Below are positions 775 through 11,137 of a DNA stretch of 64,000 nt, piece after piece. The stretch comes from Rubrivivax sp. (GTDB lineage: Bacteria; Pseudomonadota; Gammaproteobacteria; Burkholderiales; Burkholderiaceae_C): NCBI GenBank assembly GCA_019635285.1, contig JAHBZS010000008.1, positions 80,557-144,556 on the forward strand, given 5' to 3'. Each line of letters begins with the position of its first letter. The first letter of the stretch is position 1. The position numbers and the translations under genes are program-made. The notes below the pieces were generated by a model. That model was not told the DNA's origin and ran no database searches. It saw only the letters and a list, made by a program, of their open reading frames with translations.

Positions 775-1326
775 ATGCCCCTGCCGCCCCCCGACTGCGC
801 CCGCCGAGCCTCGCACCGGCGCTCGATCACCATCGACGCCTACGCCCGCAGCGACGGGCTGTGGGACATCGAAGGCCACCTTACCGACGCCTGGACCCAG
901 CCGGTGCCGCGCGCCGGCGGCCTGCTGCCGCCCGGCGAGCCGATGCATTCGATGTGGCTGCGCCTGACGGTGGATGCCAGCGCCACCATCGTGGCGGTGC
1001 AGGCCGCCACCGACGCCGCGCCCTACGACGCGGCCTGCGGCGCCATCGCACCGGACTACGGGCAGCTGGTCGGCGTGCGCGTGGCGCGCGGCTACCGCGA
1101 CGCCATCCGCCGCCTGTTCGGCCGCACCGCGGGCTGCACCCACATGAGCGAGCTGGCCGGCGTGATGGGCAGCGCGGTGCTGCAGGCGATGTGGGAGGTG
1201 ATGACGCAGAACCCCGACGAGAAGCCTTTCAGCATCGACGGCTGCCACGCGCTGAAGTCGTCGGGGCCGCAGGTGGCCCAGTTCTTTCCGCGCTGGTACA
1301 AGCCGCAGACTCCGCCTCAGACCTGA
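775..1326 (+). CDS. DUF2889-family protein
   Basis: ATG at 775 within ORF 349..1326. Motifs HRRSITIDAYARSDGLWDIEGHLTD, MHSMWLRLTVD, GCTHMSEL and IDGCHAL are typical of DUF2889. Confidence 0.75.
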   Translation: MPLPPPDCARRASHRRSITIDAYARSDGLWDIEGHLTDAWTQPVPRAGGLLPPGEPMHSMWLRLTVDASATIVAVQAATDAAPYDAACGAIAPDYGQLVGVRVARGYRDAIRRLFGRTAGCTHMSELAGVMGSAVLQAMWEVMTQNPDEKPFSIDGCHALKSSGPQVAQFFPRWYKPQTPPQT

Positions 1327-1430
1327 GGCCGCGGCGGCGCGTCGCCCGGGCCCGTTGATCCAGGCAGGTCGCTCAAGCCGCTCAAACGAGATCTGATTCG
1401 ATCGAATGGATGTCGCGTTGCGGGCTGCCT

Positions 1431-1566
1431 TCGGCGCGTTGTTGTCGTTCGCGTCATCCAGCGCAAGCCGAGGGTGGCGGGTGAACGAATCCGCTCCTGT
1501 CCCCCGCCCGGTCTGCGACCGGGCTCCTCCTTTACCTCGCGGATTCGCTCACCCGCCACCCTCGGC
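1431..1566. ncRNA. Candidate structured RNA/repeat element, copy 1
   Basis: Perfect 18-bp stem 1467-1484/1549-1566 and 9-bp stem 1486-1494/1539-1547. Internal loop TCCTGTCCCCC (1495-1505) / TCCTCCTTTACCTC (1525-1538). Apical 8-bp hairpin 1506-1524. Homologous to the inverted copy at 1668-1803. Confidence 0.6.
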
Positions 1567-1667
1567 CGGGCAGCTGCGAGGCCTTCGATGCCGCGTGAAC
1601 AGCCCAAGCGACGCAGTGCCGCGTGGTTTGGCTGTTGGTGATGTCCCGAACCACGCCGTACTCACCC

Positions 1668-1803
1668 GCCGAGGACGGGGGATGCGAGTCCGCGAGGTAA
1701 AGGAGGAGGGGCGGGCGCCAGCCCGACCCGGGGGACAGGAGCGGATTCGCATCCCCCGTCCTCGGCTCGCGCTGGATTGAAGCGGACGACTGCAACGCGC
1801 CGA
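1668..1803. ncRNA. Candidate structured RNA/repeat element, copy 2 (inverted relative to copy 1)
   Basis: Perfect 20-bp stem 1668-1687/1747-1766 and 5-bp stem 1689-1693/1741-1745. Loop strands GAGGTAAAGGAGGA (1694-1707) and GGGGGACAGGA (1730-1740) are exact reverse complements of the copy-1 loops. Apical hairpin 1708-1729. Confidence 0.6.
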
Positions 1804-1852
1804 TTGGCGCCACCATCTTTATGCGCTTGATCGCAGCACGGTATCAGGCCGC

Positions 1853-2440
1853 TCAATCCGCTCCGGCCGTGACATTTCCGCGCACCGGCGAAATCGGCTC
1901 GTCGCTGGCCCGCACCAGGAAGTCGGCGGCCGGCGTGCCCGCGCGGCGGCGCGCCACCCAGTCGTCGGGGTCGTACTCCACGCCGATCGGGTTGGCGCTG
2001 AAATGCGGGCCGTGCATGTAGGCGTTGGTGGCGTCGTTGGACGCGAAGCAGTCGACCTGGAACTCCATCTGGTTGCCGTCGGGGTCGCGGTAGTACATCG
2101 ACACGGTGATGCCGTGGTGCACGCACCAGTAGGGCCGGATGCCCAGCGCCTTCAGCTGCTCGTAGCTGTCCAGTAGCTGGTCCAGCGAGTCGTAGGCATA
2201 GGCCACGTGGTCGACGCCGATCTGCCCCTTGCGGTCTACGTCGCTGCCCTGCGGATCCAGCACCGACAGGTTGACGAAGGCGAAGCGATGGTGCTCGTCG
2301 TCGTAGGTCAGGAAGGCCAGCACCGGGTTCTGGAACTGGGCGCGGGTGTCGAAGACGGCCTGGTACCACTGCAGCATCGGCTCGAAGCGGCGCGTGCGGT
2401 AGACGACGTGGCAGAAGCGGGTGGGCTTGGTGCGCTGCAT
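1853..2440 (-). CDS. VOC/glyoxalase-superfamily protein (extradiol-dioxygenase-like)
   Basis: FCHVVYRT, DDEHHRFAF, GVDHVAY, HHGITVSMYYRDPDGNQMEFQVD motifs. Confidence 0.85.
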   Translation of the reverse strand: MQRTKPTRFCHVVYRTRRFEPMLQWYQAVFDTRAQFQNPVLAFLTYDDEHHRFAFVNLSVLDPQGSDVDRKGQIGVDHVAYAYDSLDQLLDSYEQLKALGIRPYWCVHHGITVSMYYRDPDGNQMEFQVDCFASNDATNAYMHGPHFSANPIGVEYDPDDWVARRRAGTPAADFLVRASDEPISPVRGNVTAGAD

Positions 2441-2623
2441 GGAGCCTCCTTGGCGCGGCTTGCCGTGCCGGCGATGCTACGCCTGCCGCCCGACGGCCAG
2501 GTCGGTCCGCCGCCGCGCCCTGGGTTGGGAGGCTGAACTTCCGCGGCGCGGATTTGTCGGAGAATTTTGCGTCTGCAACTCCCCGAGCGCTGGGCTCGGC
2601 CCTTGCCTGGAAGGCTCCCCACC

Positions 2624-3736
2624 ATGAAGAAGCTTGTCTCCCGATGCCTGGCCGCGCTGGCGGCGACCCTGGGCCTGTGCGGCGCCGCGCTGGCGCAGAA
2701 CGCCGAGCCCAAGGTGCTGAACATCTACAACTGGTCGGACTACATCGCCGAAGACACCATCAAGAACTTCGAGAAGGAAACCGGCATCAAGGTCCGCTAC
2801 GACAACTACGACACCAACGAGATCCTTCACGCCAAGCTGGTGGCGGGCAAGAGCGGCTACGACATCGTCGTGCCGAGCGCGCAGTTCGCCAAGCAGCAGA
2901 TCGACGCCGGGTTGTTCCAGAAGCTCGACCGCTCGCAGCTCAGCAACTGGGGTAACCTGGACCCGGCGCTGCTGGAGCTGCTGGCCAAGGTGGACCCGGG
3001 CAACCAGTACGTGGTGGACTGGCTGTGGGGCTACATCACCGTGGGCATCAACGTGCCGCTGGTGAAGAAGGCGCTGGGCACCGAGCCGATGCCCGAGAAC
3101 CCCTGGTCGCTGATCTTCGACCCCAAGTACGCCAGCAAGCTCAAGTCCTGCGGCATCAGCCTGCTCGATTCGGCCTCCGAGGTCATGCCGGTGGCGATGT
3201 TCTACGTCGGTAAGCCCGGCTACAGCCGCAATGCCGCCGACTATGCGGCCGCGGCCGAGATGCTGAAGAAGATCCGCCCCTACGTGACGCGCTTCTCTTC
3301 GTCCGGCTACATCAACGACCTGGCGAGCGGCTCGCTGTGCGTGGTGATGGGCTATTCGGGCGACATCAACATCGCCCGCGCGCGGGCCATCGAGGCCGGC
3401 AAGGGCCCGGTGATCCAGGCGCTGGTGCCCAAGAGCGGCGCCACGCTGTTCTTCGACGTGATGGCCATTCCGGCCGATGCGCCGCACCCGAAGAACGCGC
3501 ACCTGTTCATCAACTACATCATGCGCCCCGAGGTGCATGCGTCGCTGACCAACAAGGTGTTCTATGCCAACCCGAACAAGGCGTCGCTGAAGTTCGTCAA
3601 GCCTGACGTAGCGACGAACCCGACCGTGTTCCTGGCGGACGAAGACAAGGCGCGCATGAACATGCCCGAGGCCCTGCCGCAGGACATCCGGCGCGTGCAG
3701 ACGCGGGCCTTCACCAACTTCAAGGCGGGTTCCTAG
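2624..3736 (+). CDS. Polyamine (putrescine/spermidine) ABC transporter substrate-binding protein, PotF/PotD-like
   Basis: Signal peptide, then VLNIYNWSDYI, GYDIVVPS, WLWGYITVGIN, GYSGDI. ATG at 2624. No permease or ATPase genes adjacent. Confidence 0.9.
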   Translation: MKKLVSRCLAALAATLGLCGAALAQNAEPKVLNIYNWSDYIAEDTIKNFEKETGIKVRYDNYDTNEILHAKLVAGKSGYDIVVPSAQFAKQQIDAGLFQKLDRSQLSNWGNLDPALLELLAKVDPGNQYVVDWLWGYITVGINVPLVKKALGTEPMPENPWSLIFDPKYASKLKSCGISLLDSASEVMPVAMFYVGKPGYSRNAADYAAAAEMLKKIRPYVTRFSSSGYINDLASGSLCVVMGYSGDINIARARAIEAGKGPVIQALVPKSGATLFFDVMAIPADAPHPKNAHLFINYIMRPEVHASLTNKVFYANPNKASLKFVKPDVATNPTVFLADEDKARMNMPEALPQDIRRVQTRAFTNFKAGS

Positions 3737-4922: not shown

Positions 4923-6389
4923 TCAGCACTCGACGATGTTGACGGCGAGCCCGCCACGCGCGGTTTCCTTGTATTTGGTCATCATGTCGGCGCCGGTCTC
5001 GCGCATCGTCTTGATGACCTTGTCCAGGCTCACGTGGTGCGTGCCGTCGCCGTGCAGCGCCATGCGCGCGGCATTGATGGCCTTGACCGAGGCGATCGCG
5101 TTGCGCTCGATGCAGGGGATCTGCACCAGGCCGCCCACCGGGTCGCAGGTCAGGCCCAGGTGGTGCTCCATGCCGATCTCGGCGGCGTTCTCCACCTGCG
5201 CCGGCGTGCCGCCGAGCACCGCGCACAGCGCGCCGGCAGCCATCGAACAAGCCACGCCGACCTCGCCCTGGCAGCCGACCTCGGCGCCGGAGATGCTGGC
5301 GTTTTCTTTGTAGAGCAAGCCGATGGCCGCCGCGGTGAGCAGGAAGTCGATGACCCCTCGATCGGTGGCGTCGGGTCCGGTGTCGGGCTGGTCCAAGCCG
5401 GCTGCGTCCCCGTCGGGGCGACCGACGCTTCGCGTCGCCGGGGGCGGGTTCACGAACCGGGTGTAGTAGTGCAGCACCGCCGGCACGATGCCGGCGGCCC
5501 CGTTGGTCGGCGCGGTGACGACGCGGCCGCCGGCGGCGTTTTCCTCGTTGACCGCCAGCGCGTACAGGTTCACCCAGTCCAGCACCTGCAGCGGGTCGCG
5601 CAGCGCCGCCTCGGGGTGGCGGATCAGGTCCTGGTACAGCGTCGGGGCGCGGCGCCGCACCTTGAAGCCCCCCGGCAGCGTGCCGCTGGCCGCGCAACCG
5701 CGCCGCACGCAGTCCTGCATGACGTGCCAGATCTGCAGCAGCCCGGCATCGATCTGCGCGTCGCTGCGCCAGTGGCGCTCGTTGACGCGCATCACGCCGG
5801 CGATGCTCAAGGACTCGCGCTGCGTCACCGCCAGCAGTTCGTCGCCGCTGCGGAAGGGCAGCGGCAGCACCGTGGGGTCGGGGGCGATGGCGGCGCGGCG
5901 GCTGCCGTCGGCCGCGGCCTCGTCGCTGAGCACGAAGCCGCCGCCCACCGAATAGAACACGCGCGCATCCAGCGTGTCGCCCGCGGCGTCGAAGGCCGCG
6001 AAACGCATGCCGTTGGCATGCAGCGGCAGCGACTCGCGGCGGTGGAACTTCAGGTCACGCTTCTCCGCGAAGTCCACCGCATGCACGCCGGCCAGCGGCA
6101 GCCGGCCGCTGTCGCGCAGCGCCTTCAGCAGCGCCGGGATGGTCTCGACCTCGATGGTGTCGGGCTCGTGGCCCAGCAGCCCCAGCAGCACCGCCTTGTC
6201 GCTGCCGTGGCCCTTGCCGGTGGCGCCGAGCGAGCCGTACAGATCGGCCTGCACGCGGTGCACGCGCGCCAGCAGCCCCTCGTGCTGCAGGCGCAGCGCG
6301 AAAAGCCGCGCCGCGCGCATCGGGCCGACCGTGTGGCTGCTGCTGGGGCCGATGCCGATCTTGAACAGGTCGAAGACGGAGACGGCCAT
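4923..6389 (-). CDS. sdaA: L-serine ammonia-lyase (Fe-S dependent)
   Basis: [63 protein letters not shown]. True start at 6389, not the ORF-track start. Confidence 0.95.
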
Positions 6390-10864: not shown

Positions 10865-10911
10865 GGCAGCTTCCAAGGGCGAAGGAACAATCCCATTCTG
10901 GTTGTTCTTGG

Positions 10912-11121
10912 CCCCCGCTGTCCGCTTTACCTGAGAGATTGGCGTGGCTTGATGACCACGCTTGCCCCTTCGGTGGGCTGGCCCGAAACCAGCCTCTCTC
11001 CAGTGAGGATCACCCCGTTGCCGGGGCGCTTGCCAGTCCTTTTGCCTGAGCGTTCGGAACTTTCGTCCCTGCGCCTTCGGCGACCGCCGCCGTGTCCGGG
11101 CAGTGGCTCTCTCCTGACGCG
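10912..11121 (-). promoter_or_regulatory. Tandem glycine riboswitch (two aptamers) upstream of gcvT
   Basis: The minus strand reads GGAGAG..CGCCGAAGGCGCA..CTCAGGCAAAAGGAC (aptamer 1), then CTGGAGAGA..CACCGAAGGGGCAA..TCTCAGGTAAAGCGGACAG (aptamer 2). A TACACT -10 candidate lies at 11125-11130. Confidence 0.93.
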
Positions 11122-11137
11122 CGCAGTGTAGCCCAGG

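Follow-up and report, generated by a model that had tools for sequence, protein, structure and literature searches.

An apparently undescribed family of palindromic repeats in Burkholderiales, with paired hairpins that fold on one strand around a conserved purine-rich loop

Correia/NEMIS repeats of Neisseria, ERIC sequences of enterobacteria and RUP/BOX elements of pneumococci are non-coding repeats of 100-400 bp with terminal inverted repeats (TIRs) that lie beside genes, are co-transcribed with them and form long hairpins. The REPIN, or REP-BIME, is an inverted doublet of palindromes with a variable spacer, and the whole doublet can fold as one hairpin (Bertels & Rainey 2011, PMC3116915, PMC3337134; Bertels et al. 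2017, PMC5581495). Here we analyzed an element at positions 1431-1803 of a 64,000-nucleotide stretch of Rubrivivax sp. DNA (assembly GCA_019635285.1, contig JAHBZS010000008.1), referred to as the window. An original prediction, made from the sequence letters, had presented this element as a candidate undescribed structured RNA family. We found that it belongs to an apparently undescribed family among the palindromic, non-autonomous repeats of bacteria and is not a new RNA family. The earlier view was right that no known RNA family accounts for the element and that its folding is under selection, and a role as RNA is possible.

The element shares with REPINs the inverted palindromic doublet, the variable spacer and the ability of the whole doublet to fold as one hairpin. 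As with REPINs, there are tens of copies per genome, all of them extragenic and non-autonomous with no transposase inside, and they form subfamilies within a genome. Unlike the REPIN unit, an imperfect palindrome of 20-35 nt, the unit found here is about 100 nt long and has, besides an apical hairpin, an internal loop that is large and conserved. It also lacks a conserved GTAG-type 5' tetranucleotide at the foot of the hairpin (alignment A2, described below), carries separate TIRs of 14-26 bp outside the hairpins, and conserves its loop sequence across genera while the stems are free to vary. As those families are generally described, Correia/NEMIS, ERIC and RUP/BOX resemble it in size, TIRs, placement beside genes, co-transcription and long hairpins. 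They differ in having defined target duplications (e.g. TA) and/or a known parent insertion sequence (IS), and in conserving sequence over their whole length, whereas in the present element the loops are invariant and the stems are hypervariable but compensated. Sequence similarity to them was not evident, and none of them was matched in Rfam.

Positions 1431-1803 form a single discrete, palindromic, non-coding unit of 373 bp, in which a TIR, a hairpin of about 100 nt, a spacer, an inverted hairpin of about 100 nt and a second TIR follow one another. Its parts are as follows.

1431..1803, no strand assigned: whole repeat unit, 373 bp (inverted repeats I4-I6; contigs from other copies diverge at 1431/1432 and 1803; folds as one strand)
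1431..1456, plus strand: left TIR, TCGGCGCGTTGTTGTCGTTCGCGTCA (inverted repeat I5, 26 nt, 85% complementary to 1778-1803)
1778..1803, minus strand: right TIR, TCGGCGCGTTGCAGTCGTCCGCTTCA in minus-strand reading (inverted repeat I5; loose ends at 1803)
1467..1566, folding strand minus: hairpin A, with outer stem, asymmetric purine-rich internal loop and apical hairpin (inverted repeat I1; match to covariance model R1 at 1572-1460, minus strand, 105.9 bits)
1495..1505, minus strand: hairpin A internal loop, 3' strand of the folding strand, GGGGGACAGGA (TCCTGTCCCCC on the plus strand)
1525..1538, minus strand: hairpin A internal loop, 5' strand of the folding strand, GAGGTAAAGGAGGA (TCCTCCTTTACCTC on the plus strand)
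1567..1667, no strand assigned: central spacer between the hairpins, subfamily-specific and, by DNA depth, far less repeated than the hairpins
1668..1766, folding strand plus: hairpin B, the inverted version of the hairpin A module (inverted repeat I2; match to model R1 at 1662-1773, plus strand, 97.7 bits)
1694..1707, plus strand: hairpin B 5' loop strand, GAGGTAAAGGAGGA
1730..1740, plus strand: hairpin B 3' loop strand, GGGGGACAGGA

The arms of hairpin A (1467-1494/1539-1566, 28 nt) and of hairpin B (1668-1693/1741-1766, 26 nt) are each 96% complementary, and the inverted homology of the two arms of the element extends outward to 1431 and 1803. These limits had already been proposed; they coincide with the ends of the 26-nt inverted repeat and with the exact points (1431/1432 and 1803) at which contigs of other copies, from metagenomes and metatranscriptomes, part from the window. 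The two inverted hairpins at 1467-1566 and 1668-1766 have identical loop strands, as predicted, and the middles of their stems and their apical hairpins do differ between the copies yet remain paired. The loop strands TCCTGTCCCCC and (C)TCCTCCTTTACCTC occurred exactly twice each in the window, once per strand, against chance expectations of 0.04 and 0.00, and model R1 matched only hairpins A and B there. Compared with shuffled sequences, folding gave z = -8.4/-9.3 for hairpin A and -5.0/-5.0 for hairpin B. Hairpin A was more stable on the minus strand (-91.2 vs -83.3 kcal/mol on the plus strand) and hairpin B on the plus strand (-78.1 vs -74.7 kcal/mol on the minus strand). Folded as one strand, the whole unit gave a single long hairpin of -280.8 / -275.2 kcal/mol.

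The conserved core of the hairpin has three parts: an outer stem of 26-28 bp, free in sequence except for a conserved GGG:CCC block; a purine-rich internal loop of 14 x 11 nt (GAGGUAAAGGAGGA / GGGGGACAGGA); and a short apical stem that ends in a G...A loop. We aligned 81 distinct hairpins by MAFFT with no structure imposed (alignment A2) and evaluated the alignment with RNAalifold and by explicit counting of pairs. Paired cells reached 94.4%, compared to 62.8% in shuffled and approximately 38% in slid controls, and the covariation score was 0.794 compared to 0.205 and approximately 0.1, respectively. Changes on both sides of the pair were observed for 29 of the 30 stem pairs. Because the search pattern itself required invariant loops, A2 does not demonstrate them; independent evidence comes from the window pair and from 38 partner copies that the model recovered. 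In those partners, most loop positions were still 85-100% conserved.

Two markers were used to determine which strand folds. On the strand bearing GAGGTAAAGGAGGA / GGGGGACAGGA, non-Watson-Crick stem cells consisted of 213 G·U and 11 A·C (about 19:1), or 73-91 G·U and 10 A·C when each subfamily was counted once. Strand-symmetric mutation would make the two classes equal, and the asymmetry therefore marks the folding strand. Apical loops of the G...A type were present on the purine-loop strand of 60 of 82 distinct hairpins and on the opposite strand of 1. The agreement of these two independent markers shows selection for folding of the hairpin on a single strand. The purine-loop strand also folded better in all 81 copies, regardless of whether RNA or DNA parameters were used. 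This strand is the minus strand at hairpin A and the plus strand at hairpin B, so that it runs 5' to 3' toward the terminus at both ends.

The covarying pairs and both asymmetries support the earlier view that invariant loops and compensatory stems reflect selection on a folded single strand. The strand that had been drawn was the wrong one, since its C-rich loops belong to the worse-folding strand in 81/81 copies and the supported strand is its complement. On the drawn strand, the CCUCC-type loops are reminiscent of Betaproteobacteria toxic sRNA, cuckoo/CcsR and RsmY/Z. Unlike these small RNAs (sRNAs), the element gave no match to them in Rfam at E <= 10, its C-rich strand is disfavoured, and its copy number and transposon-like ends do not fit. 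With Rfam 15 at gathering thresholds, the elements in eight other loci gave no match and the window gave only glycine riboswitches elsewhere; at the locus itself, E <= 10 returned only sub-threshold miRNA-hairpin noise. No known RNA family could be assigned, in agreement with the original prediction. The riboswitch hits are tandem aptamers at window positions 10908-11126 on the minus strand (RF00504, 60.8 and 45.2 bits), which are of a common, known kind and presumably precede a glycine-cleavage gene.

The distribution of the loops was examined in one genome per species across 185,579 species, with a loops-only pattern (CCTGTCCCCC N10-40 CTCCTTTACCTC). There were 91 matching stretches, 87 of which were in this Burkholderiales clade: Roseateles, Paucibacter, Rubrivivax, Ideonella, Methylibium, Ramlibacter, Rhodoferax, Ottowia and related metagenome-assembled genomes (MAGs). 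The other four, in Acetatifactor, NPL-UPA2 and two others, were chance matches without stems. By this pattern, 20 loci were counted in Roseateles microcysteis MS17 and 17 in Paucibacter sp. Y2R2-4. The search of relatives with a covariance model, which had been suggested earlier, was performed with R1 and recovered 151 hairpins in the matched loci (about 20 genomes). Nearly every lone pattern match had an inverted partner hairpin 20-180 nt away. No match to the element was found among 72,556 plasmids or in viral contigs.

Several observations show that the copies are recent and repeated. Four 334-bp copies in R. microcysteis are 99.4-100% identical at four loci whose flanks are unrelated. The pattern matches of Rubrivivax albus lie at contig ends, a hallmark of repeats on which assemblies break. 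In DNA run X13, contig depth was 22-29 in the flanks, approximately 1,300-1,480 in hairpin A (about 50 times the flanks) and 62-82 in the spacer. Because depth peaks in the hairpin and falls in the spacer, the hairpin is the shared core, with spacers and termini specific to subfamilies. The element is discrete, multi-copy, recently copied, non-coding and palindromic. In a Roseateles cavernae scaffold (L042:~5700-5722), a run of at least 17 G directly precedes a hairpin and is probably an assembly or scaffolding artefact at the repeat.

The original prediction had raised paralogous sRNAs as an alternative, and two sRNA genes, or a chance or purely double-stranded palindrome without selection for folding, would account for two well-folding copies in the window. 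Correction of quasipalindromes is also known to yield complementary arms without selection. Instead, we observed one dispersed repeat with TIRs and sharp ends, 17-20 or more loci per genome, identical copies elsewhere and the DNA depth excess described above, and the 151 hairpins occur as transposon-like units. The G·U to A·C ratio of 19:1 and the apical-loop ratio of 60:1 are impossible by strand-symmetric DNA processes, and the loop motifs have a chance expectation of at most 0.04. We therefore consider both forms of this explanation very improbable. The other alternative in the prediction, a REPIN/MITE-like inverted doublet (MITE, miniature inverted-repeat transposable element), fits the observed organization. 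It had also been reasoned that hundreds of near-identical, silent copies would identify a repeat of this type; the copies proved multiple and mobile-like, which largely agrees with this, but number in tens rather than hundreds.

We next consider the ends of the element and the arrangement of its doublets. Both ends of the window copy read TCGGCGCGTTG(T/C)..., the 334-bp copies of R. microcysteis start with CGGCACGTTGCGGAC... and finish with ...ATGTGCCG, and Paucibacter copies of 317-385 bp have GGCACTTTGCGGAC at both ends. Termini of the same type as the left TIR of the window copy, GGC(A/G)C(G/T)TTGC(G/A)G(A/T)C, were present in Roseateles and Paucibacter copies. The terminus GGCAC(T/G)TTGCGGAC is common to several genera and, with small size and the lack of an open reading frame (ORF), gives the element the hallmarks of a MITE; unlike MITEs, it has no target duplication of fixed length. 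Spacers in other copies ranged from 20 to 180 nt with a median of 35. Orientation was counted in 47 doublets, the subset used for alignment A3, and folding strands faced outward in 45 of these and inward in 2. REPINs likewise have one preferred doublet configuration and a rare opposite one.

Two variants of the organization were also noted. A 530-bp variant in R. albus and in HK-STAS MAGs has perfect 19-bp termini (GACCCGGAGCGGACGTTGG) and one hairpin, and its other arm is a different long palindrome of about 330 nt. Its locations are:

L001:~2880-3460, and also L003, L010, L091, L057 and L086: 530-bp variant; the contigs of Rubrivivax albus ICH-3 end within it

A Rhodoferax MAG has two shorter hairpins, each standing alone and lacking the usual termini (L059:3349-3450 and 5415-5511), one at each end of an acyl-CoA synthetase gene.

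The termini raise the question of an ordinary MITE, in which the DDE transposase of an IS would read the TIRs as double-stranded DNA and the hairpins would be passengers or relics. The element is small, has sharp ends and no ORF, and its clear TIRs are common to several genera. These ends may also resemble IS6/IS26-type inverted repeats, such as the IS26 end GGCACTGTTGCAAA, which provides a possible lead. However, conservation and copy number are highest in the hairpin rather than in the terminus, and the strand-specific G·U and G...A asymmetries cannot stem from recognition of double-stranded DNA. Target-site duplications were not consistent, no IS with these ends was present in any locus examined, none of the 72,556 plasmids matched, and the solitary hairpins of L059 lack such termini. 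An ordinary DDE-type MITE is thus improbable.

Genes that might mobilize the element were sought around the copies. No transposase adjoins any of the approximately 90 loci, and, in contrast to REP-RAYT systems, no flanking RAYT (HUH/Y1) gene was present in the approximately 730 kb surrounding the copies. Pfam searches of 145 neighbour ORFs and of 10 ORFs interior to solitary hairpins yielded housekeeping families only, with no Y1_Tnp among the families listed (those with at least two members). Recurrent ORF clusters near the copies were considered as transposase candidates and rejected, as they were spurious ORFs read through the repeat or housekeeping families. The L059 hairpin pair, 2 kb apart, was likewise discarded as an autonomous element because it flanks the acyl-CoA synthetase gene. 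A literature search returned nothing specific on the loop sequences, on REP or MITE repeats in these genera, or on RAYT/REPIN in Burkholderiales.

Gene context was assessed for 34 doublets with callable genes on both sides; 12 were in convergent, 21 in tandem and 1 in divergent intergenic regions, and no gene was interrupted. Neighbouring genes encode ABC transporters, dehydrogenases, flagellar proteins and similar functions. The genes that flank the window copy are:

~778..1326 (ORF 349-1326), plus strand: DUF2889 protein gene (Pfam PF11136)
1853..2440, minus strand: glyoxalase-family gene, convergent with the DUF2889 gene (Pfam PF00903; the gene call is also present in L092/L093)

The true DUF2889 product is approximately 182 aa rather than the 325-aa ORF, as homologues of 179-200 aa cover 52-56% of the ORF. 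Orthologous DUF2889 loci, with proteins 83-92% identical, were found without the element. Relative to the closest contig, L094 (about 89-91% nucleotide identity), the window has a 1.34-kb indel comprising the element and the glyoxalase-family gene (window 1300-2642 vs L094:3026-3142), located between the DUF2889 gene and a solute-binding-protein gene. As the indel also takes in the glyoxalase gene, the DUF2889 orthologues provide no clean insertion footprint, and by this comparison the element sits at the edge of a difference in gene content. A 19-nt direct repeat (1365-1383 and 1845-1863; CAGGTCGCTCAAGCCGCTC and CAGGCCGCTCAATCCGCTC, 89%) lies 48 and 42 nt beyond the ends of the element; the copy at 1845-1863 overlaps the 3' end of the glyoxalase gene, and the repeat is possibly due to chance. 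A cobalamin riboswitch and a tRNA, both ordinary, were observed near a Paucibacter copy (L008:6087-6328 and L008:2507-2580).

Expression was evaluated in metatranscriptome contigs (Logan), which are unstranded and may include DNA. In four activated-sludge metatranscriptomes, contigs spanned the element at depths like those of neighbouring genes, and other RNA runs contained related copies at low depth. RNA contig depth showed no over-representation comparable to the DNA copy number. Neither a sigma-70-like promoter nor an intrinsic terminator was predicted within the element. Contigs of RNA runs X26 and X28 skipped hairpin A (1451->1554), and one also skipped hairpin B (1676->1778), leaving a hairpin-less form. 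Such joints may arise when reverse transcriptase jumps across a stable hairpin in RNA, or they may reflect a copy with a genuine deletion.

Variation within the loops was also examined. A second loop set is frequent in partner arms: GAAGUAAAG(G/A)(G/A)GGAG with GG(A/G)(G/U)GACAUGAGC, or ...ACACGAGC. Loop changes fell in antiparallel register: positions 42/90 were G·G in 85 hairpins, A-U in 18 and G-C in 8, positions 49/85 were G·G or A-U, and positions 50/84 were A·G or G·A. This pattern suggests that the internal loop is a structured, purine-rich, non-canonical motif, although independent events were probably few, since the variants seem to be arm types of long standing. Within the 3' loop (GGGGGAC^AGGAGC) of 8-9 hairpins, and never outside hairpins, we found a 68-nt module that consists of two small hairpins. 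The module has two sequence types, whose differences are compensatory, and could be either a structural expansion or a mini-insertion that targets the loop. The copies are:

L067:4620-4687, L014, L050, L013, L075 and L008; L031:2236-2303 and L051:5943-6010: 68-nt module

Other explanations of the loop were set aside. Loop-loop kissing of the two arms is a weak explanation for loop invariance, as many doublets pair the canonical with the variant loop set, and CsrA/Rsm-type GGA sites do not apply because the GGA of the 3' loop is absent from variant copies (CAUGAGC, CACGAGC). Inspection by eye also showed that a K-turn, a G-quadruplex or an attC site would not agree with the register in which the correlated changes fall.

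These data bear on whether the hairpin works as RNA, that is, as a structured module in 3' untranslated regions and intercistronic read-through transcripts, where it would serve as a platform for a protein or the ribosome, as a processing or stability element or as a sponge. It would be kept by the host or by the element, and mobility would explain its spread only. Strong covariation, abundant G·U pairs and the correlated changes across the loop are consistent with a structured RNA motif, and the AGUA/GAC arrangement, compared by eye, may resemble the bulged-G (sarcin-ricin-like) motif. The loop stretch AAAGGAGG is complementary to the 3' end of 16S rRNA. The 68-nt expansion at a fixed loop position, with its compensatory changes, also fits, as do the depletion of the element from divergent promoter regions (1/34), its location downstream of genes and its coverage by metatranscriptome contigs. 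Hairpin-skipping joints in 2/4 RNA runs and 0/4 DNA runs are as expected of reverse transcriptase jumps.

However, the lack of a predicted promoter or terminator speaks against an RNA role, and spacers of 20-40 nt are too short for outward promoters. A read-through transcript would meet the hairpin of the poorly folding C-loop strand first, and RNA depth was neighbour-like despite multi-copy DNA. Of 82 apical loops, 49 were triloops, with C(GNA)G the commonest and few true GNRA loops. Perfect stems of 26-28 bp would be substrates for RNase III, the two solitary L059 hairpins are inconsistently oriented relative to the mRNA of the adjacent gene, and no Rfam family matched. We regard an RNA function as a serious but less probable alternative.

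With moderate confidence, we lean instead toward a palindromic repeat of the REPIN/MITE type, non-autonomous and present in many copies, of which the element is one; the family is found in Burkholderiales of the Rubrivivax-Roseateles-Paucibacter-Ideonella type. Its hairpin would be a cis-acting single-strand module that is read, most likely as single-stranded DNA (ssDNA), by an unlinked enzyme. The hairpin and its invariant loop would be the site by which the element is recognized and propagated in folded, single-stranded form, possibly when replication or transposition exposes it as ssDNA. An enzyme specific for the structure and the loops, with its gene at another place in the genome, would read the hairpin and copy the element into further intergenic positions. 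A copy whose fold or loops are lost would cease to spread, and we propose that loops are invariant and stems covary freely because only copies that keep both would spread. When inserted downstream of genes, the element would be co-transcribed and could have secondary effects on mRNA. The same logic of a cis-acting site and an unlinked factor has been proposed for REPINs and RAYTs (PMC3337134).

We lean toward ssDNA for several reasons. C(GNA)G triloops dominate, the stems of 26-28 bp are near-perfect, and the ends show two-fold symmetry, in that the folding strand runs out at either terminus; in addition, no promoters were predicted and RNA was not over-represented. C(GNA)G is the classic extra-stable minihairpin of DNA. 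A trans-acting enzyme is suggested by the absence of a transposase next to the approximately 90 loci. The ends of IS200/IS605 elements and the attC sites of integrons, as generally understood, provide parallels, as both are recognized in a strand-specific manner as a folded single strand, and attC has conserved unpaired bases on a variable stem. Unlike the present element, IS200/IS605 has ends that share one strand and are not inverted, and attC lies in arrays behind cassettes with R/L boxes; neither motif set was present here.

Several results count against this interpretation. A regular-expression search for the HUH/Y motif (HxH...YxxNP) identified 0 ORFs in the approximately 730 kb around the 151 hairpins, with whole genomes not searched. 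Pairs of TIRs 0.15-6 kb apart in all loci enclosed no gene and were only the MITE-like elements themselves, so that no autonomous element with the same ends was found. Transposition is inferred from the identity of copies, as no clean empty site was recovered; in four DNA runs, no contig joint skipped 1431-1803. Target-site duplication was inconsistent, with a flanking direct repeat in one of six copies with clean termini (AACTC, L037) and none in the window. The two inward-facing doublets are one orthologous locus in two Paucibacter species. G·U at 8% of stem pairs, the conserved 68-nt two-hairpin expansion and the possible AGUA/GAC likeness to a bulged-G RNA motif fit an RNA role as well or better, and hairpin-skipping joints occurred in two of four RNA runs and not among the joints listed in four DNA runs. 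At the inward locus (L029:3442-3700 / L082:3454-3712), the hairpins are 30 nt apart, and an A-U -> G·U change between the species preserves pairing on the purine-loop strand.

A bolder idea is that the hairpin, carried by a transposon at its two ends, is a functional structured nucleic acid of a new class. It could be an RNA encoded by the element, with a sarcin-ricin-like purine motif that recruits the ribosome or a host factor; alternatively, it could be a large ssDNA 'aptamer' for a structure-specific transposase of a so far unknown kind unrelated to RAYT or IS200. We think this unlikely; if true, it would mean a new mechanism of transposition or domestication in Burkholderiales.

The class to which the element belongs is ordinary, but the covariation, specific to one strand and surrounding a purine loop of 25 nt that stays invariant across genera, is unusually clear. 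For annotation, the locus should be masked as a repeat rather than recorded as two sRNA genes. The finding adds an apparently undescribed repeat family, one that breaks short-read assemblies, to Burkholderiales that are environmentally abundant in wastewater and freshwater. It also provides a natural experiment, in which dozens of subfamilies keep 25 loop nucleotides and rewrite approximately 60 stem nucleotides in a compensatory manner while two markers reveal the folding strand. The family thereby makes the REPIN-type question testable in these bacteria: which factor reads the element, whether it does so in DNA or RNA form, and who benefits.

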